Virus record (IMG/VR): IMGVR_UViG_3300022700_000208
Coordinates: 1 to 64,000 of that record
DNA from: a virus
DNA: 64,000 nt
Reading direction: 5' to 3' (one strand)
Part shown: positions 5,363 through 21,493 of the stretch, piece by piece
How the letters are laid out: each line of letters begins with the position of its first letter
Position numbering within the stretch: position 1 is the first letter of the stretch
The notes under the pieces: generated by a model
Told to the model about the DNA's origin: nothing
What the model saw: the letters and a program-made list of their open reading frames with translations, nothing else
Databases searched by the model: none
Made by a program: the position numbers and the translations under genes

Positions 5363-5619
5363 TAGTCAACCCACCATGTTTGAACTATTTCCTCAGCGGA
5401 AATATTCTCCTTTTTGCTTTCACTTATAATTCTTCCATCTGTGTTCGTCTTCCAAACAGTAAAACTTTCCCCGTTAAAGTTCATAACACAAACACCAAAA
5501 TTAACTGGCCTGTGTCCTTTTGTTTCTCGGCTTTTGAGGTAACACAGCTCTCCAGGATTAAGTCTATTGAGAAAGGCAATGTCTTCATTTTCTCTTTTTT
5601 CAATTTTACCTTCGCTCAT
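5362..5619 (-). CDS. hypothetical protein
   Basis: 85 aa, overlapping start/stop with neighbours. Confidence 0.6.
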   Translation of the reverse strand: MSEGKIEKRENEDIAFLNRLNPGELCYLKSRETKGHRPVNFGVCVMNFNGESFTVWKTNTDGRIISESKKENISAEEIVQTWWVD

Positions 5620-5837
5620 GTATCCACCATTTGGTTAGGACCTTCAAGAATTTCAGAGCTTTTATCTGTTCTGTCCTTTAATACAATTTGTTCTCTTCTA
5701 GAGGACACAAAAATAACAAGATCAGACATGCAAATTTTTTTAAAGATCTCATCTTTAAAATCAACTATTGTGGGATTTTCTGTATCCTTTTTTTGTTCCG
5801 TTAAGTCTTTTGGACTTAGATAAAGTGGTTTCATCAT
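5616..5837 (-). CDS. hypothetical protein
   Basis: 73 aa, coupled to neighbour. Confidence 0.55.
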   Translation of the reverse strand: MMKPLYLSPKDLTEQKKDTENPTIVDFKDEIFKKICMSDLVIFVSSRREQIVLKDRTDKSSEILEGPNQMVDT

Positions 5838-5964
5838 TTCCCCTTTTAATAAGTTGTCTAGACAATTCTCTTACTTTTTCTCTAAGCCACTCATTTTCTT
5901 CTAGAACTTGACGCTTGCTCTTCCAGGTAAAAAACTGCTTAATGCCTTTCATGCGTAGTCCCAT
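5761..5964 (-). CDS. hypothetical coiled-coil protein
   Basis: SD AGGAGGAG and promoter motif upstream. Confidence 0.55.
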   Translation of the reverse strand: MGLRMKGIKQFFTWKSKRQVLEENEWLREKVRELSRQLIKRGNDETTLSKSKRLNGTKKGYRKSHNS

Positions 5965-5989
5965 AAACTCCTCCTAGTTTCCCTGCCCT

Positions 5990-6020
5990 CCATAACGAAA
6001 AACTAGGAGCTGATTCTCAG
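5990..6020 (-). promoter_or_regulatory. Conserved phage promoter motif, copy 2
   Basis: CTGAGAATCAGCTCCTAGTTTTTCGTTATGG. Confidence 0.65.
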
Positions 6021-6050
6021 AAAAAGGTAAATTTTTTTAGACACTGAGCA

Positions 6051-6374
6051 TCACTTTTTAAAGAGATGCTCCATAATCTCTGGGGGAACTGGAGGAGATT
6101 CAGGCTCTCCTCTGTAGACAATATCTTTTGAGAAGCTAAACCCTATGTTCTCCTGGTCTGCTTTAAAATCTTTACCCACAAGACCTTTTTCCTTCAGGTA
6201 AGTTTCAATCTCTTCCCAAATAGAATCAGTCTGCTCATTGTACTCTTCTTGTATTTTTTCAGCTTGCTGCTTTAAGGCATCTAGCTTTCTTTGAGCAAAC
6301 TTTTCCTGCTCATCAATTTTACAGCAAAGATCATAAAGAGTTTTATCCTGAGAGAGTATTGCTAAAGCCTTCAT
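6051..6374 (-). CDS. hypothetical protein
   Basis: 107 aa, SD GAGGAG. Confidence 0.7.
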   Translation of the reverse strand: MKALAILSQDKTLYDLCCKIDEQEKFAQRKLDALKQQAEKIQEEYNEQTDSIWEEIETYLKEKGLVGKDFKADQENIGFSFSKDIVYRGEPESPPVPPEIMEHLFKK

Positions 6375-6377
6375 TTT

Positions 6378-6680
6378 TCACTCCTCCTCAATTTCTCTTT
6401 GGACTTTATCACGTATTTTGGTGAGAGTCTCATATCCTTCTTGATCTCCCATCTCATGAAGAATATCTTCTTGACTGACAAATCCCATGTCAAAAAGCAT
6501 TGCCTTTATTTCATTATCACTAGGAATTCTATGATCTTTTTCCTTGGCTCCAAGAAGGATGGTTATAAATTCTCTATTTCTTTCGGTCCCAAACTCAAAG
6601 CGGCCATTTTCTGACACAGCTTGAAACTTCTTTTGGACACCAATCATTCCCTTTTTGGCTTCTGGAAACCCGTCACTCAT
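6378..6680 (-). CDS. hypothetical protein
   Basis: 100 aa, SD AGGAG. Confidence 0.7.
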   Translation of the reverse strand: MSDGFPEAKKGMIGVQKKFQAVSENGRFEFGTERNREFITILLGAKEKDHRIPSDNEIKAMLFDMGFVSQEDILHEMGDQEGYETLTKIRDKVQREIEEE

Positions 6681-11134: not shown

Positions 11135-12241
11135 TTATGCAGATTTTTCAGCAATTTCTTTCCACTGAGACTTATTAAGATCCAGGATCATTCCACCTGC
11201 TCTTTCCATCTCAATAGAATCCTCATAGGAAATTTCCTCAACTTGGTGAGCCGCTTTGGTGAATGAGTTGACAAGTCCGTATTTGGTGAGTCCTGCACCC
11301 TCATTTCCTGAGGCCAATGCAGCAAGGATTCCTTCCTTCTTATTTTCACCTTGGACTTTTGTAGCCTTCATGGCCTTATCGACAACCTTATCCAACTTAG
11401 TATTTTCAATGGGGATCTCAGTAGCTTCTTTTAGACGCTCTACTTCTCTTTCAAAATTGACTTGCTCCATGCTAGCTTTCAGGATGTCTTGCACCTTATC
11501 CCAAAACACAGCATCATCTTTTTGCAAAGTCTCATCTGATAGAACCTCAAAGACCTCTCTTTCCACCTGATTGCGTCCAGTATGAAACCGCTTCATAGCA
11601 GTATTGCTGATCATTCCATTGTCACAAACCAAACGATAGATCATGGGCTCAATTCTAAGGGAGCCTGATCCCACATCAGAATTTGAAATTGTGAGTCCAT
11701 ATTGAACGGTATCACCTTTTTGAATTTCCGTTTTTAGTTTGGGGGAAAGAGCTTTCACAAAAAGCCTACGCTCAGTGTTCTCACTGGATACCACTTCCAT
11801 TCCGTTTTCAAAGATCACAGGAAGGGCTGTCTCAAGTAACTTGTGGGAATCCAGGGGACGGTAGTAGGAAGAGAGAAAACCTCTCAAATACCCATCCAGA
11901 GACCTGATCATTCGACCTTCTGGCTTATTCCCTCTTTTGACTATTTGCCCTTTGTTTTCTAGACCATGGTTGATGTTGTCAGTGAGAAGAATTGGGTTCT
12001 CTTGCTGTAGCTTATGAAAATACCGAACGGGGATATCCAGATAAGAGGCTACTTGCTGAGAAGAATGAGAATTGAGACCGAAGGAATGCTCACCCTCATT
12101 GGTTTCAAAGGCAATGTTGACCTGTTGGTTATCCCCAACCTTTGCCTCCAATTCTTTAGTCGGAACAATAAAGTCTTGCTTTTGTTCCTGGATTCTCTCT
12201 AGCTCCTTTGCCATGTCTGTGAGAGATTTTCCTGTTAACAT
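11135..12241 (-). CDS. DUF932/DUF945-like phage protein
   Basis: RGFLSSYYRPLD, ISNSDVGSGSL, YRLVCDNGMI. Confidence 0.8.
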   Translation of the reverse strand: MLTGKSLTDMAKELERIQEQKQDFIVPTKELEAKVGDNQQVNIAFETNEGEHSFGLNSHSSQQVASYLDIPVRYFHKLQQENPILLTDNINHGLENKGQIVKRGNKPEGRMIRSLDGYLRGFLSSYYRPLDSHKLLETALPVIFENGMEVVSSENTERRLFVKALSPKLKTEIQKGDTVQYGLTISNSDVGSGSLRIEPMIYRLVCDNGMISNTAMKRFHTGRNQVEREVFEVLSDETLQKDDAVFWDKVQDILKASMEQVNFEREVERLKEATEIPIENTKLDKVVDKAMKATKVQGENKKEGILAALASGNEGAGLTKYGLVNSFTKAAHQVEEISYEDSIEMERAGGMILDLNKSQWKEIAEKSA

Positions 12242-12306
12242 AATGTACCTCCTTAGTGCCTATCCCTCTTTGGGGCTCATTCCCCTAGGGAGTCGGATAT
12301 GGGTTT

Positions 12307-12370
12307 ATGGCCTATCTCATCAGTGTCGGGAGGCCATCCCCGATCAGACGGGCATATTGCCCGTTTCGAT
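12307..12370 (-). ncRNA. Type II hammerhead ribozyme with pseudoknot
   Basis: AUC-GAAA-C-GGGCA(AUA)UGCCC-G-UC/cleavage-stem I-CUGAUGA-GAU; the stem I loop AUGGCCU pairs with the 3' AGGCCAU. Confidence 0.85.
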
Positions 12371-12664
12371 TTATTTCTTTTTGACTTTGGGAAACTCAAC
12401 CTTCGTCTCGTAGAGCAGTCCCTTGTCGATCAGCTTTTGCTCCCCAATTGCATTTGCAACGTCTTTCCAGTTGGCCAGTGTGGTTCTGTTTTGATTAACA
12501 ATCTTGAGTGAATAGTCCTTGGTTTCAGTGGCACCCATTTCTATGAGGTGCTTTTTAAGTTCATCTTTTTGCTTTTTGATCTCATTTTCCTGGTCAGTTA
12601 GTTCTTTGTATTTGGCTAGTTTTTGGTTTGGTGTGAGTTTGGAAAAGCTCATTTTATCCCCCAT
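12371..12664 (-). CDS. hypothetical protein
   Basis: 97 aa in operon. Confidence 0.65.
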   Translation of the reverse strand: MGDKMSFSKLTPNQKLAKYKELTDQENEIKKQKDELKKHLIEMGATETKDYSLKIVNQNRTTLANWKDVANAIGEQKLIDKGLLYETKVEFPKVKKK

Positions 12665-13536
12665 TAGGCTATCTGGTCGTTTTTAAGTTCAATTCCCTGC
12701 TCTTCTAGAATGTCTTGAATGGATTGGGATTGTTTTTTGGAAGAGTCGTAACGGAATTTGTGGTTTATTTGCTTTTCAGCTTCTAGATAGCGGTTAACAA
12801 GCTTGGGATTGTGTTGGGCAGCAATGGCAATTTCTTTCTTTGAGGAATAAATGCAGATAGCGCATGAAGCTCTTGATACTCCCAATGCATAGCAAGGGTG
12901 CTTTGGCATTTCATAGAAATTGTTTTCAGCCCAAACCTTGCCTTCAGTCCAGTCTACAATAGGACTGGCTTTAATCATCATAGTGCCTTTTCTCTTATAA
13001 ACCTTCTCATTAAAGACATGCTTTCTAGCGCGGCGAGTTGATTCTTCAGCGCGTTCTCCGCAAAGAACCAAGACGTTTCCCCCAAGTTGGGAGCAAAACT
13101 TATCGCAAGGCTGAGTCTTGACCTGAGCCGTACACCATTGCTGGTTAGGGCCAGGCCACTTCTTTTGCTTTTTCTCTCCAGTTTTGCGATCAACCTGACC
13201 AGCCAATAGAAGATCAAGAACGCCTTTCTCATCCTCACGTTTCACGATGTGGAGCTTTACCCCAAGATTTTCACATTGGGCTTTTACAGTAGGCAGTGTT
13301 TCGTCCCAATCGGTATCAAGTTCAGCATGGAGAGCTATGATGCGATCAGCACCAAAAGTTCGAGTGGCCCAACAAAGAAGAGCCCCTGAATCCTTCCCTC
13401 CAGAAGTAGAGACCACAATATGATCAAAAGAGCCTTCAGCATCCATTCGCTGGAGCCTGTTCCTTAAAGCCTGCCCTCTGTGGTTGATTTTAGTCTTGTT
13501 TGGTGTGTATGTATTCTTAGCCATTTTTACCCCCAA
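12664..13536 (-). CDS. PAPS reductase-family protein
   Basis: PP-loop STSGGKDS, WCTAQVK, GERAEESTRR, RASCAIC. Confidence 0.85.
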   Translation of the reverse strand: MGVKMAKNTYTPNKTKINHRGQALRNRLQRMDAEGSFDHIVVSTSGGKDSGALLCWATRTFGADRIIALHAELDTDWDETLPTVKAQCENLGVKLHIVKREDEKGVLDLLLAGQVDRKTGEKKQKKWPGPNQQWCTAQVKTQPCDKFCSQLGGNVLVLCGERAEESTRRARKHVFNEKVYKRKGTMMIKASPIVDWTEGKVWAENNFYEMPKHPCYALGVSRASCAICIYSSKKEIAIAAQHNPKLVNRYLEAEKQINHKFRYDSSKKQSQSIQDILEEQGIELKNDQIA

Positions 13537-13565
13537 GTTTTTAATAACCTTAACTATCTATATTC

Positions 13566-13594
13566 ATTCTACGTCCTAACTTAATGAAAAGCAA
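13566..13594 (-). promoter_or_regulatory. sigma70-type early promoter for the leftward operon
   Basis: TTGCTT-17 bp-TAGAAT. Confidence 0.7.
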
Positions 13595-13635
13595 GGAATT
13601 AATTATAATTAATTCTAAAATCCCACAAAATGAGG

Positions 13636-14348
13636 GATTTCAGTGACTTACCGCGTCTCAAATTATTAATAATTCGATTTTTGTGATGCTCTGCATGAGA
13701 GAAGATGTGTGATGGGAAGGATTACCTGGTAGCAGAGCCTGAAATTGCCGTCAATCACCAAGGCAATGAGAGCTTCTGTGAGCCCTACAGGGGCTATTAT
13801 GGTCAATCATAGGGACCTGAGCCCAAAAGCCAAACACAATCAAAATATGTGGCTCTCTGAGGCTTCTGGATATATCCCATGCCTGAGATATATCTCAAAC
13901 CGATTTGGGCATCCAATACAGCCGACACAGGGCTCCGACAGGGGGAGGAGGCCCCCGTAGTAGGGGCCTTTCCAAAACAAAGTGATTTCAGATACTTAAC
14001 TCGCTGTGGACCAGGTAAACAACCACAATATTAGCCGCTTTGTAAGTTACTGAAATCAGGGCTTGTTATTTCCGTGAGCGGCGTTTCAAGCCGTTCAAAT
14101 TGGGGGGGTTTCGACCTACGCGCTCTGTGTCACCAAAATTCCATAGAAATTCCAATAACTTAAATTATTTTTATTTAAGAAAAGAAGAGTTCAAAAAAGG
14201 CTCAAAAAAGGGCCAAAAAGCCTTCTGAAGCCACAAAATAAAATATGTTTTTGCTATATTCAGCGCATTAGACGCATAGTACCGAACAACGTGCTCACTT
14301 TGTAAGAAAATTTAAGACAGAAAATTTCTGAGAGAAATCAATGAGTTA
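13636..14348. repeat. Dispersed GATTTCAGnnACTTA (IHF-like) repeats in the non-coding divergence region
   Basis: Copies at 13636, 13984, 14043 (reverse), 14148, 14335. Confidence 0.6.
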
Positions 14349-14627
14349 TGATATTAACAAAAATTTAACTGAACACTAGGTCGGGTGCTGTCGTTAAAGA
14401 AAGAAAGTACCAAAGAAAGAAACCTCAATCGAATAATTGATCTAGCGATCAATTATATTGTTTACCCTTGATTGTTCATTCGCTTCGCTCATTCACAATC
14501 AAGTATATTTTTCTTAGCCCCTATATTCTTTTTTAAAAAGAAACACTGAGTCAGAAGTGATCAATACTATTAAAACTGAAGAAAAAATCAATCCAAACAA
14601 AATATAACACAAAGTATTATATGTGTA

Positions 14628-14661
14628 GGGGATCTGAGGTCTGAGAGGACCTCAGATCCCC
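14628..14661. repeat. Perfect 14-bp inverted repeat
   Basis: GGGGATCTGAGGTC-TGAGAG-GACCTCAGATCCCC. Confidence 0.85.
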
Positions 14662-14905
14662 AAACCAAGAATTTCACAAAAGTTACATAAGAATTTTACG
14701 TAATATTTTGTATATTCCTTCAGTAAATCCTCTTTTTTCTTCATCCCCAATAAATACGATGAATTATTTTGGGGGTGACACTATGCATAAAAATAATACC
14801 TGTTTACTTTTTGATTGGATTAATCTTGATCCTAGGGGTTTTTTAGTTTAAGCGCATGTTTACCCAGTTAATTGCTCTTTTTGTTAAGTTGCAGGAGGTT
14901 TTTTA

Positions 14906-15283
14906 ATGAATAAGCCAGAAGTTTTATTTAAAGATGGGGAATATAGAGTGGTCAGGAAGACAGAAAAAGAGCCAGCGGATAACATCTATCTCAACTTTAT
15001 TGTGGAAAAGAGAGTTGGAGAGGATTCTTTGGGCAATGAGAGTTGGATTCCAGAATTTTCATTTCATGATTTGGTTATAAAATCGAAACATGAAGAGCGT
15101 TTCTTTGTTAAGGGGGAAAGTATCATTTTTCTTTTCAATGCTATTGATACCTTTTATAGAAAACTAAGAACAGCAGAAAATAGGCTGAATGAATATAGAG
15201 ATGCCTTTCCAGAAGGCAAATCCAATCTGCAAGAGATAACAGAAAAAACGGAATTGGGTGGAGATTCAGGAGAATTGTGTTGA
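14906..15283 (+). CDS. hypothetical protein
   Basis: SD AGGAGG, 125 aa. Confidence 0.75.
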   Translation: MNKPEVLFKDGEYRVVRKTEKEPADNIYLNFIVEKRVGEDSLGNESWIPEFSFHDLVIKSKHEERFFVKGESIIFLFNAIDTFYRKLRTAENRLNEYRDAFPEGKSNLQEITEKTELGGDSGELC

Positions 15284-15489
15284 CTTATAAATTGGATGGG
15301 CATGATTTCACTTTAAATCTTAATGAGCGTCAACTTGAACTTCTCATTCAAACCTGTGAGTCAATGGCTGATTATGATCAAAATGCTGATCCCAGTGAGG
15401 TTCCCCCGTATGCCTCAAAGGATTGGGATGTGATTTTAAACCAATTGAAAGATATGAAAGAGGTGTTTGATGAACAAAATAAAAATTGA
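15277..15489 (+). CDS. hypothetical protein
   Basis: SD AGGAG, GTG start. Confidence 0.6.
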   Translation: MLTYKLDGHDFTLNLNERQLELLIQTCESMADYDQNADPSEVPPYASKDWDVILNQLKDMKEVFDEQNKN

Positions 15490-15616
15490 GTTCTTATTTA
15501 AGACTATGTACAACCCAGGGGAAGATGCACCTCCTCAGTTTCAAACCGAAGGTGGAATTATATTCACTAAACAATATATCCCTATCTTACAAGAAAAGTT
15601 GGAATTGAAAAGATAG

Positions 15617-15958
15617 TTGATTGAGGGGTTTATGAGTCACTATAGCAATGATCCACAGAATGTGAGAGTTGATTTCTTTAAGCCATCGGGAAAGTGGTAT
15701 GCCACTGAGCAAGTAACAATGGTGGGTTGGAGGGGAGATGAAGTTCTCATTCATGATTCTTTAGTTGATGCTCTAGATAATTTGGAGAGAAAGGATGGAG
15801 GGCCTCTATTTAGGGGGATGCAAGTTATTTGCCTTGAGCCTTATCATGAGTTTTCTCATCCCATTTCAATAAAAGAATGGAATGGAAAAGAGGAGTGGTT
15901 AAAAGAGAAGGCTGAAATTAAAAGGAAAATTGGGATGGACCAGGGACTTGAACCCTAA
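15617..15958 (+). CDS. conserved phage hypothetical protein
   Basis: VRVDFFKPSGKWY motif; probable start ATG 15632. Confidence 0.7.
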   Translation: MIEGFMSHYSNDPQNVRVDFFKPSGKWYATEQVTMVGWRGDEVLIHDSLVDALDNLERKDGGPLFRGMQVICLEPYHEFSHPISIKEWNGKEEWLKEKAEIKRKIGMDQGLEP

Positions 15959-16018
15959 CCTGAAATATATTTCAAAAATTTCTTGATCTTGAAATATATT
16001 TAACCGATCCTGAATTCT

Positions 16019-16078
16019 ATGAAGTTTTTAAACCGAGCCCGCACAACCTGGACAGAGGGAGGCTACAGTATGATGTAG
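16019..16078 (+). CDS. Attenuator leader peptide 1 MKFLNRARTTWTEGGYSMM
   Basis: Codon run ACA ACC TGG ACA GAG GGA GGC matches the downstream Thr/Trp/Glu/Gly tRNAs; no SD, possibly leaderless. Confidence 0.8.
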   Translation: MKFLNRARTTWTEGGYSMM

Positions 16079-16148
16079 TTTGGGGCTTGGTGCGATCAAA
16101 ACCGAATTGAAGAAATAGAACCCAAGCCCAAAGAGCTTGGGTTTTTTA
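16033..16148 (+). promoter_or_regulatory. Transcription attenuator of tRNA operon 1
   Basis: Segment 1 CCGAGCCC (16033-40), segment 2 GGGCTTGG (16083-90), segment 3 CCAAGCCC (16122-29), segment 4 GCTTGGGTT plus U-tract. Confidence 0.85.
16119..16148 (+). terminator. Attenuator terminator 1
   Basis: AACCCAAGC-ccaaaga-GCTTGGGTT-TTTT, 5 nt before tRNA-Glu. Confidence 0.9.
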
Positions 16149-16152
16149 TTTT

Positions 16153-16228
16153 GCGGCTATCGTCTAATGGTTAAGGATACCAGACTTTCTATCTGGGGAT
16201 GGGGGTTCAAATCCCCCTGGCCGCGCCA
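16153..16228 (+). tRNA. tRNA-Glu(TTC)
   Basis: Cloverleaf, CCAGA-CTTTCTA-TCTGG, TTCAAAT, encoded CCA. Confidence 0.93.
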
Positions 16229-16231
16229 TAT

Positions 16232-16308
16232 CCGTTAGTAGCTCAATTGGCTAGAGCGCCTGACTTCCAATCAGGAGGCTGTGGGTTCGAGCCCCACCTA
16301 GCGGTCCA
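16232..16308 (+). tRNA. tRNA-Gly(TCC)
   Basis: CCTGA-CTTCCAA-TCAGG, ends TCCA. Confidence 0.93.
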
Positions 16309-16309
16309 T

Positions 16310-16383
16310 AGGAGGGTGATCTAATGGTAAGAGCACAGACTCCAAATCTGTGAATGTTGGTTCAAGTCCAGCCCTTCCTGCCA
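16310..16383 (+). tRNA. tRNA-Trp(CCA)
   Basis: ACAGA-CTCCAAA-TCTGT, ends GCCA. Confidence 0.93.
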
Positions 16384-16384
16384 T

Positions 16385-16461
16385 GCCTCTGTAGCTCAAT
16401 TGGCTAGAGCAGCGGTCTTGTAAACCGAAGGTTGGGTGTTCGAGTCACCCCAGGGGCTCCA
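16385..16461 (+). tRNA. tRNA-Thr(TGT)
   Basis: GCGGT-CTTGTAA-ACCGA, ends TCCA. Confidence 0.93.
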
Positions 16462-16565
16462 TTTTTCAAAAAATGCAGACTAGAATTGGGGATTTTTGAT
16501 TTTCAAATTTCTACTTGAGATTTTTTAAGGCTTGTCCGATTATAGAAGGGACTTAAGAGGAGATT

Positions 16566-16643
16566 ATGCAAACACTACGCATAGCCATGATTTTTAATGT
16601 GGATAGAGCGGATAGAGTCCTAGGTAAGGAGGGCATGGCGTAG
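16566..16643 (+). CDS. Attenuator leader peptide 2 MQTLRIAMIFNVDRADRVLGKEGMA
   Basis: SD AGAGGAG; codons ATA, ATG, ATT, TTT, AAT, GAT, AGA, GAT, AGA match all downstream tRNA anticodons. Confidence 0.88.
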   Translation: MQTLRIAMIFNVDRADRVLGKEGMA

Positions 16644-16709
16644 GTTTGTATTAAGTTACAGTTTGATTTTGGAAACCTAACCCAGGCCCTAAAAAGCCTG
16701 GGTTTTTTT
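16569..16709 (+). promoter_or_regulatory. Transcription attenuator of tRNA operon 2
   Basis: Antiterminator 16630-47 pairs 16673-90 (15/18 bp); protector 16569-89 pairs 16634-48. Confidence 0.88.
16679..16709 (+). terminator. Attenuator terminator 2
   Basis: AACCCAGGC-cctaaaaa-GCCTGGGTT-TTTTT, directly before the tRNA. Confidence 0.9.
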
Positions 16710-16711
16710 AT

Positions 16712-16787
16712 TCCTGGGTATCTTAATTGGCAAAGAACCCGCCTCATAAGCGGGGGTATGCTGGTTCAAGTCCAGCCCCAGGAACCA
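16712..16787 (+). tRNA. tRNA-CAT (Ile2 or Met)
   Basis: CCCGC-CTCATAA-GCGGG, ends ACCA. Confidence 0.88.
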
Positions 16788-16788
16788 T

Positions 16789-16860
16789 AGCTGGATAGCT
16801 CAAGGGTAGAGCATCTGACCGATAATCAGAAGGTTGCAGGTTCAAATCCTGCTCCAGCTA
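16789..16860 (+). tRNA. tRNA-Ile(GAT)
   Basis: TCTGA-CCGATAA-TCAGA (C33); followed by TCA rather than CCA. Confidence 0.88.
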
Positions 16861-16901
16861 TCATTTTAAAAGGAGAATTATTTATAATTAAAAAGTTATA
16901 T

Positions 16902-16977
16902 TCAGGGGTAGTTCAATTGGAAGAACGCGTGACTGTTAATCACGTAGTTGCTGGTTCGAGTCCAGCCCTCTGAGCCA
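16902..16977 (+). tRNA. tRNA-Asn(GTT)
   Basis: CGTGA-CTGTTAA-TCACG, ends GCCA. Confidence 0.93.
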
Positions 16978-16979
16978 AT

Positions 16980-17053
16980 TGCGGGATAGTGTAAAGGCAA
17001 CATGCAGGTCTCATAAGCCTGAGCTGGGTGTTCGAGTCACCCTCCCGCAACCA
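16980..17053 (+). tRNA. tRNA-Met(CAT), acceptor stem resembling fMet
   Basis: TGCGGGA/TCCCGCA acceptor; CAGGT-CTCATAA-GCCTG. Confidence 0.88.
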
Positions 17054-17055
17054 AT

Positions 17056-17132
17056 CTGAGAGTAGTTCAATTGGAGAGAACATTGCCCTTCTAAGGCAAA
17101 TGCTGAAGGTTCGAGTCCTTCCTCTCAGGCCA
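17056..17132 (+). tRNA. tRNA-Arg(TCT)
   Basis: TTGCC-CTTCTAA-GGCAA, ends GCCA. Confidence 0.93.
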
Positions 17133-17133
17133 T

Positions 17134-17209
17134 GCAGGGATAGCTCAGATGGTAGAGCACTGGATTGAAAATCCAGGTGTCAGTGGTTCAATTCCACTTC
17201 CCTGCACCA
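17134..17209 (+). tRNA. tRNA-Phe(GAA)
   Basis: CTGGA-TTGAAAA-TCCAG, ends ACCA. Confidence 0.93.
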
Positions 17210-17213
17210 ATTG

Positions 17214-17288
17214 GGGGCTGTGATGTAATGGCTAACATATCGGACTGTCTATCCGAAACTAGGGGTTCGATTCCCCTCAGCCCCGCCA
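17214..17288 (+). tRNA. tRNA-Asp(GTC)
   Basis: TCGGA-CTGTCTA-TCCGA, ends GCCA. Confidence 0.93.
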
Positions 17289-17447
17289 TCTTTGCCCCAA
17301 AGTTGCCCCATTCTTGCCCCAATTTCTTCCCTATTCCTGGAGTTGCCTACTGGAAAATTTCCAGAAGGTAACTTGATTGTATTATGCATTGCATATATCT
17401 TTGAAAAATATACTTGACGAAAACCTGGGCCTTGCATACATTGAAAA

Positions 17448-17556
17448 TCTATTGGCTACAGGGCCAATATCAAAAACAGAGCATGGAGCTTTGGTTCGGA
17501 GCCTTAGCAAAATGTTCTAGTTTTTGGAGCCAGGTATCTATCCTGGCTATTTTTTT
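17448..17556 (+). ncRNA. Candidate ~105-nt structured small RNA
   Basis: Promoter TTGACG-17-TACATT (17414-42), two hairpins, terminator AGCCAGG/CCTGGCT plus T-tract. Confidence 0.55.
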
Positions 17557-17618
17557 GCCTTCCTTTGACGCTTTGCATCCTTACAACTAGCCCTTTTTTA
17601 AAAATTTTTCGGGTTTTT

Positions 17619-17661
17619 TTGAGAACTAGCTCGGGTTTTATCGTTATGGGATAGTGAAGGG
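17619..17661 (+). promoter_or_regulatory. Conserved phage promoter motif, copy 3 (upstream of sbcD)
   Basis: TTGAGA-17-CGTTAT then GGGATAGTGAAGGG. Confidence 0.7.
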
Positions 17662-17686
17662 GAAGTACATCTTGAGAGGAAACAAC

Positions 17687-18727
17687 ATGGAGATAAACAA
17701 CAGGATTGGCATTTTCACGGACCAGCATTTAAGAAGCACTGGATCATTTCCACCTTTCAATAAGCTTTCCGAGTCAGGTCTTTCCAAGGAACTCGATAAC
17801 ATCATCAGAGGTTTTTACTTTGTTGCTGACCAAATAAGATCTTATAAGCCCAGGGCTGTATTCTCTTTGGGGGATGCCTTTCACAACCCTGAGGTGATAG
17901 ATGTCCCAACTCTTGAGGGAGCTTCAAGGGCCTTTGGGGTTGTTAAGAAGGCTTGTGATGAAGTAGGGGCTGATTTTTACATACTGGTTGGCAACCATGA
18001 TGTGGTCTCAGAGAATCCAACTCTTATCACTTCTGTTTCAGTTCTTGAGGGGTTTGGGCAAGTAATTAAAGAGCCCTACTTTATCGACATTGATGAGTTT
18101 ACTGTCTCAATGGTTCCTTATTCATCTAATCCCTCAAAGATGTATTCTCAGCTCAAGGAAGCTGAGGTTCAGTCAGATCTTATATTAACTCATATTGATG
18201 TAGCTGGATGCAGGTATGAAAACAATCATCTTTCTGAATCAGAGATAGATCCCACTTTTAAGGTGCCTGTTATTTCGGGGGATATTCACTTTAGTCAGCA
18301 TGTAGGAAGCGTTATATATCCAGGCTCTCTTGTACAAAACAAATTCACTAGATCTGATCTCAGTGGGATTGGTGGGGCTGCTTTCTATGATCTTGAAACA
18401 AAGGAATATCAGCTTGAGAGAAATATTTATTCAAAGCATTATGTCAAAGCCCATTCCATAGAGGAAGCCAAGAAGCATGATCCCAATCAAGTTATTATTC
18501 AACTTGTTACAGATGTTCCCAAGGAAGAGGCAGAAATTGAGCTTGAAGACTATGAATTTAATTATCTTCCTGCTCCAAAAGTTGATGATAATCTTGAAGT
18601 TGAGTATGAGAATGTTGGGATTGAATCTCCCGAAGTAGTCTTGAGAACTTATATCAATCAAGACCGTCCTAGTGCCCTTAAAAATTTTGATGAGACTTTG
18701 AAAAGTAGGAGTGAATCTAATGCATAA
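17687..18727 (+). CDS. sbcD: Mre11/SbcD-like nuclease (gp47-like)
   Basis: Metallophosphoesterase motifs DQH, GDAFH, GNHD, SGDIH, YPGS. Confidence 0.9.
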   Translation: MEINNRIGIFTDQHLRSTGSFPPFNKLSESGLSKELDNIIRGFYFVADQIRSYKPRAVFSLGDAFHNPEVIDVPTLEGASRAFGVVKKACDEVGADFYILVGNHDVVSENPTLITSVSVLEGFGQVIKEPYFIDIDEFTVSMVPYSSNPSKMYSQLKEAEVQSDLILTHIDVAGCRYENNHLSESEIDPTFKVPVISGDIHFSQHVGSVIYPGSLVQNKFTRSDLSGIGGAAFYDLETKEYQLERNIYSKHYVKAHSIEEAKKHDPNQVIIQLVTDVPKEEAEIELEDYEFNYLPAPKVDDNLEVEYENVGIESPEVVLRTYINQDRPSALKNFDETLKSRSESNA

Positions 18728-19169
18728 GAGCTTGTTGATACAGACTGTTTATTCTTCCCAGCAAAGGTTGGTTTTCTTTCCTTCAAGCCAGGTAGTGAAT
18801 AAATTTATAAACCGCATAAAATCTTCAGAAATGGATGAGGACTTTGCTGACATTTATTTTGAAGATGAAAAATTCACGACAAAGTACAAAAATGTGAAAA
18901 GCATTGTTCATCCAGCTAATAAATTAAGGGGGGCTGAAGATTCACCTCTTTTTGATATAGAGGTTATTTTTGAGAATGGTTTTTCTATTAATATCCCTGC
19001 TTCGGGTAGAAAAAGAGCTGATTATTCATTCAAAAAACTTAAAAATCTTCAAAATGTTGATCCAACTGATTCTTATATACAAATCAAGCAGGATCTTAAA
19101 TTTTTGGCCACTATAAGATGGGAATCCAGAATTGCTGAGATTTATTGTACTGAAAAAGAGGAAGTATAA
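18711..19169 (+). CDS. hypothetical protein
   Basis: 152 aa between sbcD and sbcC. Confidence 0.65.
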   Translation: MNLMHKSLLIQTVYSSQQRLVFFPSSQVVNKFINRIKSSEMDEDFADIYFEDEKFTTKYKNVKSIVHPANKLRGAEDSPLFDIEVIFENGFSINIPASGRKRADYSFKKLKNLQNVDPTDSYIQIKQDLKFLATIRWESRIAEIYCTEKEEV

Positions 19170-20932
19170 TGAGTAGTGGTATCAAATACAAAAGTTTTTG
19201 GGCTGAAAATTTTAGAAGTTTTGAGAAGCTTAATTTTACTATTGAGCCTGGTAAGCATCTTGTAGTGGGTGAGAACCAGGATTCGAGTTCAGCCACAAGT
19301 AATGGATCTGGAAAAAGCAATACCTTTCTTGCTCCTGTGTTTGCTCAGTTTAAAAAGTTAAGAAAAATCAAAGATCCATCTTTTAAGCATGGCGGGGGTG
19401 TTAAAACAGGAGTTGAGTTTGAAAGAGATGGCGTCAATTATGTGATTGAGCGCCACTATAAGCATAAGAGCGGTAAAAATTCTCTAAATCTTTATATTGA
19501 TGGTGAGGATGTCAGCAAAAGGCTCAAAAAAGGCTCTGAAGAAGAGATAAAAAATATCATTGGAATGTCTTTTGATCTTTTTACTTCTACCATAATTATT
19601 GAGCAAGGTCTTCCCACTAATTTTAGTCAACTTACTGAGGTAGGAAGGAAATCAGTTGTAGAAGAGCTTCTTGGTTTTTCTGTTTTTACTGAGTATTATA
19701 AGCCTTTGTTTGATAACAGCAAGAAAAGGATTCAGCAGGACCAGGAGAGGGTAAAAGAGAAATATAATGAGTCCAGAGATGAGATGGTTAGGCTTAATTC
19801 AAAGATTGAGGCTCAGGAGAGCGCTGAAGAATCCAAAAAAGCTGAAATAAGATCCCAGGTAAAAGAAGTTAAGAAGAAAATTAAAGATCTTGAAGACAAT
19901 ATTCAGTCCAAGATGGATGAGAAGAAAAGAATTCTTGATGGTCAAGACAGCCAACATCTTCAGGCTTCCCTCAATAAGATGTCTAACACTCTTACTACTT
20001 TAAGAAATAGGAAGTCTGATCTTGACCAGATAGTTCAGCAGCAACATTGCCCTACTTGTGGTCAATCTTTTCCAGAGGAAAAAATTTCTAACGCTCAGGA
20101 TGAGTTATCTAAAATTCAGAATAAAATTCCAAAAATAGAGTCCATGTATCAGGATATTGGAAACAAGCTCAACCAAATAAATAGTATATCCCAGGAAGTT
20201 CTCAACTCTGAAGGGCAGAAAAATAGTTTTCAGTATCAGCTTGATAGTTTATTTGCTCAATTAAAGTCTGATAGTTCTAATGTGGATTTAGATAATCTCA
20301 AAGAGAAATTGGATGAAGTTGCAGATCAAGTTAATGCTTTAAATGAGGAACTCAATTCTATAAATGAAGATGTGGATAATCTGGAGTACATTTCCAAGCT
20401 TTTGTTACCCTCTTCCCCTTTCAGATCTTTTGTTCTTGAGAGATATCTTATTCATATAAACAAGATCATTTCTCATATTTCTCCTCTTTTGTTTGAAGAA
20501 GTAAAGGTTGAATTGAGTGTTACTGAAAACAATAAGGGCATTCAAATTAACATTGAGAAAAATGGTGAGGTTTATGATTATGATGAGCTTTCTGGGGGAG
20601 AGAAAAAACGATTAGATATAATTTTTATTTTGGCTTTCCAAAGATTTCTTATAGAGTCCAGTGGAATTAGATCTAATCTTCTTGTTTTTGATGAGATTTT
20701 TGATTCTTTGGATGATAGGGGTATTGAACTTGTCCTTAGCTGCATAGATTCTTTGTTTCCAGAAAGTTCTTCTATCTACATAATAACCCATAATAAGTCT
20801 GTTAAATCCATGTTCAATTCGGTCAAGAAAGTTATTAAGAAAAATGGAGTTTCTGTTCTTGAAGGATCAAAAGAGCATGAAGAATTGGCTAACTCTGAGG
20901 AGGTTGTAGAGCAAGTAGTAGCCATGGATTAA
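19169..20932 (+). CDS. sbcC: Rad50/SbcC-like ATPase (gp46-like)
   Basis: NFRS, SNGSGKS, zinc hook CPTCGQ, LSGGE, DEIFDSLD. Confidence 0.93.
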   Translation: MSSGIKYKSFWAENFRSFEKLNFTIEPGKHLVVGENQDSSSATSNGSGKSNTFLAPVFAQFKKLRKIKDPSFKHGGGVKTGVEFERDGVNYVIERHYKHKSGKNSLNLYIDGEDVSKRLKKGSEEEIKNIIGMSFDLFTSTIIIEQGLPTNFSQLTEVGRKSVVEELLGFSVFTEYYKPLFDNSKKRIQQDQERVKEKYNESRDEMVRLNSKIEAQESAEESKKAEIRSQVKEVKKKIKDLEDNIQSKMDEKKRILDGQDSQHLQASLNKMSNTLTTLRNRKSDLDQIVQQQHCPTCGQSFPEEKISNAQDELSKIQNKIPKIESMYQDIGNKLNQINSISQEVLNSEGQKNSFQYQLDSLFAQLKSDSSNVDLDNLKEKLDEVADQVNALNEELNSINEDVDNLEYISKLLLPSSPFRSFVLERYLIHINKIISHISPLLFEEVKVELSVTENNKGIQINIEKNGEVYDYDELSGGEKKRLDIIFILAFQRFLIESSGIRSNLLVFDEIFDSLDDRGIELVLSCIDSLFPESSSIYIITHNKSVKSMFNSVKKVIKKNGVSVLEGSKEHEELANSEEVVEQVVAMD

Positions 20933-20956
20933 AGCAACAGGGGAAAGACATCATAG

Positions 20957-21493
20957 ATGAATATTGCAGAATTGATACTCAAAACAATGGATGAAAGTGG
21001 GGCCGAAGACACAGGGATGGTTGGCCAGCAGATGCTTAATAAAGCTAAAAAGGCCCTACTGCCTGAAGAAGATGAGGACATGGATGATGAGCTTAAGCAA
21101 AAGATTCAGGAGCTTAAGCAATATGAAGCCAATGAAGATCTTGGCTGGATGGATTTTGCTTCCTGGAGATCTCTAAAAACCCCTGTACATACAGTCTTTT
21201 CTAAAGAATTGGAGCCTCTTTTTTGGAGTGGTGTTTATTTTAGTTATTCTCAGTTTATGGAGAAAAAAGAAATCATCTTAAAGGATATGGATGTTGGGAC
21301 TACAATCAATATACAAAAGCATGGATCTAATTTTCAGTTTATTTGTCTTAACTCCCGATCCAGTATTTATGATTATTTTGGTTCTGTTGAACTTGAAAAG
21401 TTAAAGAAGTGGTATGTGTCCACAAGATATAAGTCCATAGGAAAGACAATCACACAGGGACTAATAGTTAAAGATTTCAAGGAGGACAAATGA
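20957..21493 (+). CDS. hypothetical protein
   Basis: 178 aa ORF. Confidence 0.65.
   Translation: MNIAELILKTMDESGAEDTGMVGQQMLNKAKKALLPEEDEDMDDELKQKIQELKQYEANEDLGWMDFASWRSLKTPVHTVFSKELEPLFWSGVYFSYSQFMEKKEIILKDMDVGTTINIQKHGSNFQFICLNSRSSIYDYFGSVELEKLKKWYVSTRYKSIGKTITQGLIVKDFKEDK

Follow-up and report, generated by a model that had tools for sequence, protein, structure and literature searches.

How does a phage that carries its own tRNA genes control their transcription? The question is raised by a 64-kb stretch of viral DNA (the window in what follows), which is the first 64 kb of the 81,645-bp IMG/VR record IMGVR_UViG_3300022700_000208 (40% G+C; completeness ~52% according to CheckV). It contains 11 tRNA genes in two arrays, each preceded by a short open reading frame (ORF) and an intrinsic terminator. 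Phage tRNA genes are usually viewed as constitutive helpers in codon usage or as spares against tRNA-cleaving defences, and to our knowledge the control of their expression is largely unknown. We propose that the two leaders are ribosome-mediated transcription attenuators of the leader-peptide (trp) type, one before each tRNA array, and put the probability of this at about 75%. The best reading of their design is that they sense decoding by the tRNAs that they control.

Leader codons and the downstream tRNA genes

The 11 tRNA genes in two arrays that an earlier note on this DNA had reported were recovered by ARAGORN, all on the plus strand, and all of them were confirmed by an Rfam scan of positions 15800-17700. 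Array 1 (16153-16461, plus strand) consists of Glu-TTC, Gly-TCC, Trp-CCA and Thr-TGT; array 2 (16712-17288, plus strand) consists of CAT, Ile-GAT, Asn-GTT, CAT, Arg-TCT, Phe-GAA and Asp-GTC. A consensus scan placed intrinsic terminator 1 at 16117-16152 (plus strand; stem 16117-16145, then a T-run; hairpin -14.7 kcal/mol) and intrinsic terminator 2 at 16679-16711 (plus strand; stem 16679-16704, then a T-run; hairpin -15.7 kcal/mol). The distance from the T-run to the first tRNA of each array is 2-8 nt, so that the terminator noted earlier a few nucleotides before each array is indeed there. Because the tRNA starts 2-8 nt past the T-run, no space is left for a promoter between terminator and array, and transcription of the tRNAs must therefore cross the terminator. 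The two terminators resemble each other, with a compensatory A-U to G-C change between them. Terminator-like sites are frequent in the surrounding region, with 15 found by the consensus scan in 12000-21000 versus 8.4 +/- 3.2 in shuffles.

Leader ORF 1 (16019-16078, plus strand, ATG start) has 19 codons plus TAG, encodes MKFLNRARTTWTEGGYSMM and is shorter than the 20-amino-acid cut-off of the ORF listing. Its putative control codons (codons 9-15; 16043-16063, plus strand) are ACA ACC TGG ACA GAG GGA GGC, that is, T T W T E G G, and these seven consecutive codons specify solely Glu, Gly, Trp and Thr, for which array 1 has its four tRNAs. Leader ORF 2 (16566-16643, plus strand, ATG start) has 25 codons plus TAG, with a strong Shine-Dalgarno motif, AAGAGGAG, located 3 nt before the ATG (16555-16562, plus strand). 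Its putative control codons (codons 6-17; 16581-16616, plus strand) are ATA gcc ATG ATT TTT AAT gtg GAT AGA gcg GAT AGA, of which the nine in capitals cover all array 2 anticodons if one of the two CAT tRNAs reads ATA. Seven codon classes (ATA, ATG, ATT, TTT, AAT, GAT and AGA) fall within 9 codons of this leader.

The match between leader and array is far beyond chance. Among all six-frame windows of the 81.6-kb record, a 7-codon window composed solely of E, G, W and T codons with all four represented occurs once in 163,250, and this one is leader 1; 9-codon windows with all seven array 2 codon classes occur four times in 163,238, at three places, one of which is leader 2. Codon rarity was also evaluated under strict wobble rules against a background of 1.25 Mb from other phages together with the remainder of the record. 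The W-T-E-G core of leader 1 (four classes in four codons) was matched by 21 of 2,490,262 background windows, a rate of 8.4e-6, and the array 2 classes by 37 of 2,487,922 (six classes in seven codons) and 24 of 2,486,362 (seven classes in nine codons). At these background rates 0.0013-0.0022 codon-matched windows are expected per 150 window starts. Here two separate upstream regions are involved, each of them matching its own array and not the other's.

Competing RNA structures and ribosome position

Both leader transcripts fold better than shuffled sequences, leader 1 with a z of -3.68 (0 of 200 shuffles as good) and leader 2 with a z of -2.33 (3 of 200). In attenuator 1, segment 1 (the protector; 16032-16040, plus strand) lies inside the ORF and pairs in the minimum-energy fold with segment 2 (the antiterminator; 16083-16091, plus strand), which starts 5 nt past the stop codon. 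Segment 2 has two mutually exclusive partners, namely segment 1 and the 5' arm of terminator 1 (16122-16129). Its duplex with the terminator arm has an energy of -16.7 kcal/mol, which 4 of 2000 dinucleotide shuffles attain; the segment 1:segment 2 duplex is weak, with 160 of 2000 shuffles reaching the same value. The antiterminator strand of attenuator 2 (16630-16647, plus strand) overlaps the leader 2 stop codon. It forms 15 bp with 16673-16690, which covers the 5' arm of terminator 2 (-21.1 kcal/mol; 37 of 2000 shuffles), and can alternatively pair with the start of the ORF (~16566-16580; -24.4, reached by 0 of 2000 shuffles); the minimum-energy structure of nascent leader 2 RNA contains the antiterminator. 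By folds and by duplex energies relative to shuffles, both leaders thus possess the protector and antiterminator segments that the earlier note had described.

The position of a translating ribosome was modelled as a mask, in which RNA inside or behind the ribosome was removed and the nascent transcript was folded up to the terminator loop, with the 3' edge of the ribosome placed at +10, +12, +14 or +16. With the ribosome at any of the control codons, the probability of the antiterminator in nascent RNA is 0.84-0.85 for leader 1 and 0.72 for leader 2. Once the ribosome is placed at the stop codon, this probability drops to 0.00-0.23 for all four edges. In the full-length equilibrium of leader 2, the switch from antiterminator to terminator is located at the codon directly after the last AGA. 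The predicted folding of both leaders, with the antiterminator free at the control codons and masked at the stop codon, is therefore as expected of an attenuator.

Recurrence in other phage tRNA arrays

IMG/VR was sampled by a scan for a T-run 52-80 nt before a tRNA T-arm, which gave at least 119 stretches; the sampled tRNA arrays are those following GGGTTTTTT. Duplicate or overlapping stretches (L001, L033-37, L040, L042 and L009-31) were excluded from backgrounds and counts, arrays with less than 150 nt upstream were left out, and five arrays with odd anticodons were left out of the permutation test described below. With duplicates and the loci found earlier by their hairpin pattern counted in, the first tRNA lies ~30 nt or less from a hairpin and T-run in at least 106 arrays, and these hairpins have the form typical of intrinsic terminators (A-tract, G+C stem, T-run). 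At least 89 of these arrays also have an ATG-initiated ORF of 8-70 codons that ends 0-70 nt before the hairpin, and the gap between stop codon and hairpin has a median of 26 nt (interquartile range 23-29, for the 88 non-redundant cases among the matches listed).

The correspondence between leader codons and tRNA genes extends to this sample. With 1500 random 220-nt blocks as background, a minimum p of 0.012 or lower is reached by 13 of 97 arrays, including the two of the window, versus ~2 expected. In the permutation test, the tRNA sets were swapped among 96 non-redundant hairpin-preceded arrays and the best 8-codon matches were summed. The true pairing of leaders and tRNAs scored 296 versus 242.4 +/- 8.3 for the permuted pairings among the matches listed (z 6.5; 0 of 2000 permutations as high), and a z of 6.3 was retained without the arrays of the window. 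The same test on 250 hairpin-less arrays gave a z of 1.4 (p 0.10). A swap test for single loci has little power and gave 9 of 89 at p <= 0.05 versus 4.45 expected.

Individual leaders illustrate how different the codon lists are, and each resembles an inventory of the tRNAs that follow it. L149 has a run of five Gln codons before two Gln tRNAs, and L132 has QYQQQQ before three. Mixed arrays are preceded by mixed leaders: PQPQDQDP before Gln, Asp and Pro tRNAs (L046); FKKSFKWFNH before Trp, Phe, His and Lys (L107); FNQYQPNFDH before Gln, His, Phe, Pro, Asp and Asn (L119); and RLHTQLLEQPR before Pro, Glu, Gln, His, Leu, Leu and Arg (L136).

The RNA part of the design recurs as well. The ORF 3' end plus spacer is complementary to the terminator 5' arm beyond shuffles (mean z -2.37; Wilcoxon 8e-14), with z below -1.64 in 53 of the 88 non-redundant cases among the matches listed, and the strand that pairs with the terminator arm lies mostly within the last ten codons of the ORF. 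When the ribosome mask was applied to eight further leaders, pairing with the terminator 5' arm was high across the matched codons and lost near the end of the run in all eight. The loss occurs just past the last matched codon in most of them; it precedes that codon by 1-2 codons in L136 and by ~4 in L107. The absence of any leader/anticodon correspondence in other tRNA clusters had been named in advance as grounds for giving up the idea; the permutations (0 of 2000) and the stall-competent leaders (8 of 8) came out the opposite way. The earlier note had proposed to look for the correspondence in related phages; no close relative was found, and the strong correspondence is that of the 96 other hairpin-preceded arrays (z 6.5). 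A design with differing codon lists recurs in many unrelated uncultured phages, which looks like a general solution.

Proposed mechanism

In silico, the attenuators are supported by the anatomy of the two units, by how rarely such codon matches occur, by the competing structures and the ribosome geometry, and by the recurrence in other phages. From these we infer the translation of the leaders, their promoters, the termination efficiency and the response to tRNA shortage. Transcription would begin upstream of each leader, and a ribosome would translate the short ORF as RNA polymerase nears the terminator. If decoding is fast, the ribosome would reach the stop codon and cover or unwind the antiterminator strand; with that strand masked, the terminator hairpin would form a few nucleotides before the first tRNA and transcription would stop. 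A pause at any control codon, when charged cognate tRNA is scarce, would leave the antiterminator free to pair with the terminator 5' arm, and polymerase would read into the tRNA genes. As the downstream tRNAs read these same control codons, the product would relieve the stall. Each unit would thus act as a multi-input OR gate, spanning 4 tRNA species in leader 1 and 6-7 in leader 2, with negative feedback on the combined host and phage supply of those tRNAs. The depletion itself could come from a host anticodon nuclease, from host tRNA decay during infection or from the codon demand of the phage. A bolder version, in which these units belong to a widespread, unpublished class of phage regulators and serve here as a counter-defence sensor, the loss of any of ~10 tRNA species switching on the replacement array until supply is restored, is tentative and, in our judgement, rather doubtful.

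Points against the attenuators and alternative explanations

Several observations weigh against the proposed attenuators. The claim that the leader codons specify the amino acids of each array stands as far as the rarity of the windows goes, and is incomplete at the level of single codons: under strict wobble the array reads 5 of the 7 codons of leader 1, the unread ACC and GGC matching it at the amino-acid level alone, and 3 of the 12 leader 2 codons (GCC, GTG and GCG) have no tRNA in array 2. Leader 1 lacks a Shine-Dalgarno motif, which 33 of the 46 long ORFs of the phage possess. Candidate promoters found by the consensus scan lie upstream of leader 1 (P1, TTCAAA, 18 nt, TATATT; 15971-16000, plus strand) and of leader 2 (P2, TTGAGA, 17 nt, GATTAT; 16515-16543, plus strand), but sigma-70-like sites are not above chance (19 versus 21.5 expected from shuffles). 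The full-length equilibrium of leader 1 prefers the terminator even with a stalled ribosome, and read-through would therefore have to be kinetic; kinetic antitermination is a feature of the classical attenuation model. The nascent RNA of leader 2 forms the antiterminator without any ribosome (0.71), which makes the default state of untranslated leader 2 RNA ambiguous. Among the sampled arrays, many, mostly with single tRNAs, have no significant match. The leaders of the window reach p values of 0.056 and 0.09 in a coarse swap test with 17 and 10 comparators, and the leader of the L038-type phage described below mismatches its adjoining Phe-Cys pair (p 0.47-0.96). Finally, no close relative of the phage was found in which the two leaders might be conserved.

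Some of these points would fit ordinary terminators, which end upstream units or act as constitutive leaky insulators, next to ORFs that are unrelated or untranslated and match the arrays by chance. The missing Shine-Dalgarno motif of leader 1 and the chance level of the promoter-like matches agree with this, as does the fact that in 3 of 11 IMG/VR loci with the hairpin pattern the same hairpin follows protein genes as a plain terminator. We nevertheless find it very hard to credit: chance would have to produce, at ~1e-5 per window, two regions that each fit their own array; the antiterminators exceed shuffles; the match recurs in 96 arrays (z 6.5) and not in the 250 hairpin-less ones (z 1.4); and a separate tRNA promoter finds no space past the hairpin. 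About equally remote is the idea that the hairpin is a processing or stability element of the tRNA precursor and that the short ORFs encode micropeptides with functions of their own. Many sampled leaders do share MKT or MRT N-termini and conserved C-terminal stretches, as a functional peptide might; the C-terminal stretches, however, fall on the strand that complements the 5' arm of the terminator, the hairpins are built like intrinsic terminators (A-tract, G+C stem, T-run), and a peptide function would leave unexplained why leader composition tracks the tRNA set.

A further alternative accepts the switch as real and changes what it reports, namely overall translation capacity, be it ribosome availability, ribosome-polymerase coupling or general amino-acid starvation. 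Any slowing of the leader ribosome before the last few codons frees the antiterminator, and the trn operon of Anabaena, the only inducible tRNA array that the literature search brought up, responds to general translational stress (PMC8421152, PMC10272220). For a general sensor, however, codons that fit the anticodons downstream would be superfluous. The matched codons are concentrated in the stall-competent zone, with pairing lost just past them in most of the eight leaders, and the match tracks each array's own tRNA set. We consider this alternative improbable, if somewhat less so than the two above, and favour attenuators that respond to the individual tRNAs of their arrays.

Relation to known regulatory systems

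Leader-peptide attenuators are well known from amino-acid operons, with trpL, hisL, leuL and pheL as examples and thrL and ilvL as multivalent ones. The phage leaders share with them the control codons in a short ORF, which in the phage is putatively translated, and the antiterminator and terminator hairpins, and would also share the read-through caused by a stalled ribosome and, with thrL and ilvL, the sensing of several amino acids. They differ in that they occur in a phage genome and that their targets are tRNA genes rather than biosynthetic enzymes, so that the product would act directly on the sensed step, decoding. Furthermore, the control codons here list 4 and 6-7 tRNA species, mostly once or twice each, whereas amino-acid attenuators contain runs of one to three amino acids. 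In the pheST leader pheM and in the ermC and cat leaders, stalling on a short ORF likewise reshapes the downstream RNA and switches on genes that relieve the stall; in contrast to the phage leaders these sense one amino acid or antibiotic, and several of them act on translation initiation rather than termination. None of them is known to control tRNA genes. T-box riboswitches also report tRNA status to translation-related genes through a terminator/antiterminator switch, but they bind uncharged tRNA directly via a specifier codon and need no translation. A T-box identity was ruled out for the phage leaders, as the Rfam E-value scan of 15800-17700 gave solely tRNA above gathering scores and no T-box-like match in either leader.

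The nearest printed case of a silent accessory tRNA array that is induced by translational stress is, as far as the two accounts go, the trn operon of Anabaena sp. PCC 7120, which is switched on when translation is impaired (PMC8421152, PMC10272220). It has in common with the phage arrays that accessory tRNAs would stay silent until translation is impaired; it differs in being bacterial and controlled by a transcriptional repressor, TrcR (PMC10272220). The strings 'attenuat', 'leader peptide' and 'terminator' are absent from the main text of both papers. A literature search that did not extend to subscription journals found no account of attenuation acting on tRNA genes, or of leader peptides in connection with phage tRNA genes, in agreement with the earlier note. 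Judging from the sequences, we are probably dealing with known attenuator logic applied to a new target, apparently unpublished and probably widespread. If true, no earlier case would be known in which tRNA genes are regulated by the very decoding step that they serve, and each unit would be a self-contained homeostat for which no protein regulator is needed. Such attenuators could serve synthetic biology as compact natural sensors of individual tRNA pools, and their leaders could let sequence reveal the tRNAs whose shortage a phage anticipates.

Genome context and further observations

The genes of this genome include SbcC/SbcD-like nuclease subunits, a helicase, a head protease and a major head protein. 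A DNA search of a phage collection for close relatives gave only scattered tRNA similarity, and single-protein scans of IMG/VR with both flanking genes gave no match; a degenerate DNA pattern for nine leader 2 residues had no match in IMG/VR either. The closest protein relative of the SbcD-like neighbour has 64% identity and lies on a 4.1-kb contig. A profile of this neighbour found six distant loci with 24-40% identity, none of them with a tRNA within 10 kb; tRNAs are present in only 2 of the 5 records of these loci, one of which (the phage with 24% identity) has 23.

Both CAT tRNAs of array 2 have a paired 1:72 position and lack the three G-C pairs beside the anticodon loop, so that neither resembles an initiator by what we take to be the relevant criterion (1:72 pairing and the three G-C pairs). 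Similarity searches addressing whether they are methionine tRNAs or lysidine-modified isoleucine tRNAs gave matches labelled solely as tRNA-Met or unannotated. Besides tRNA, the Rfam scan of 15800-17700 found no family above its gathering score.

Two copies of TGAAATATATTT, at 15961 and 15990 (15961-16003), lie upstream of leader 1 and overlap P1, and the first of them forms the palindrome TGAAATATATTTCA. Allowing up to one mismatch, TGAAATATATTT has five matches in the window versus a shuffle mean of 1.41; the repeat may act as an operator or as a promoter element of the phage. Directly 3' of the last tRNA, positions 17292-17321 contain three tandem 11-nt units that each start with TTGCCCCA. 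Beyond them lie promoter-like sites (17358 and 17414) and the next terminator-like hairpin of the consensus scan (17528-17556, plus strand; hairpin proper 17528-17548). This hairpin is the probable end of the array 2 unit, and the region 17292-17556 may hold a small RNA or an array to which a protein binds. On the minus strand, a 64-codon ORF (16553-16747) overlaps leader 2 and terminator 2; it is probably spurious.

Among the 11 IMG/VR loci with the hairpin pattern, 8 belong to one phage species, the L038 type (5500-6650; also L033-L037, L040 and L042), and 3 are plain terminators after protein genes, and the hairpin sequence was rejected as a family marker on account of the latter. In the L038-type species a region of 22 tRNAs opens with tRNA-Phe, and a near-identical hairpin lies ~14 nt ahead of that gene. 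The spaces between the tRNAs of this region repeatedly contain a motif, CTTTGACATATTGGTAAA, and between Pro and Tyr there are tRNA-like stretches that ARAGORN did not call. The 31-codon leader of this species contains 18 different amino acids; the probability of 18 or more is 0.021 in 50,000 windows.

Leaders that begin with MKT or MRT include those of L044, L046, L065, L107, L132, L151 and others. A TATATA-like motif precedes their ATG by 8-10 nt, a Shine-Dalgarno motif is absent, and further upstream are TAnnTTTG-like motifs, which are reminiscent of the -7 promoter element of Bacteroidota. Unusual anticodons were called by ARAGORN in L076, L099 and L113, in L034 and L148, and in L093 (Ile-TAT, Gly-ACC and Leu-AAG, respectively). 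In L099 and L113, the leader contains ATA codons ahead of the Ile-TAT tRNA.

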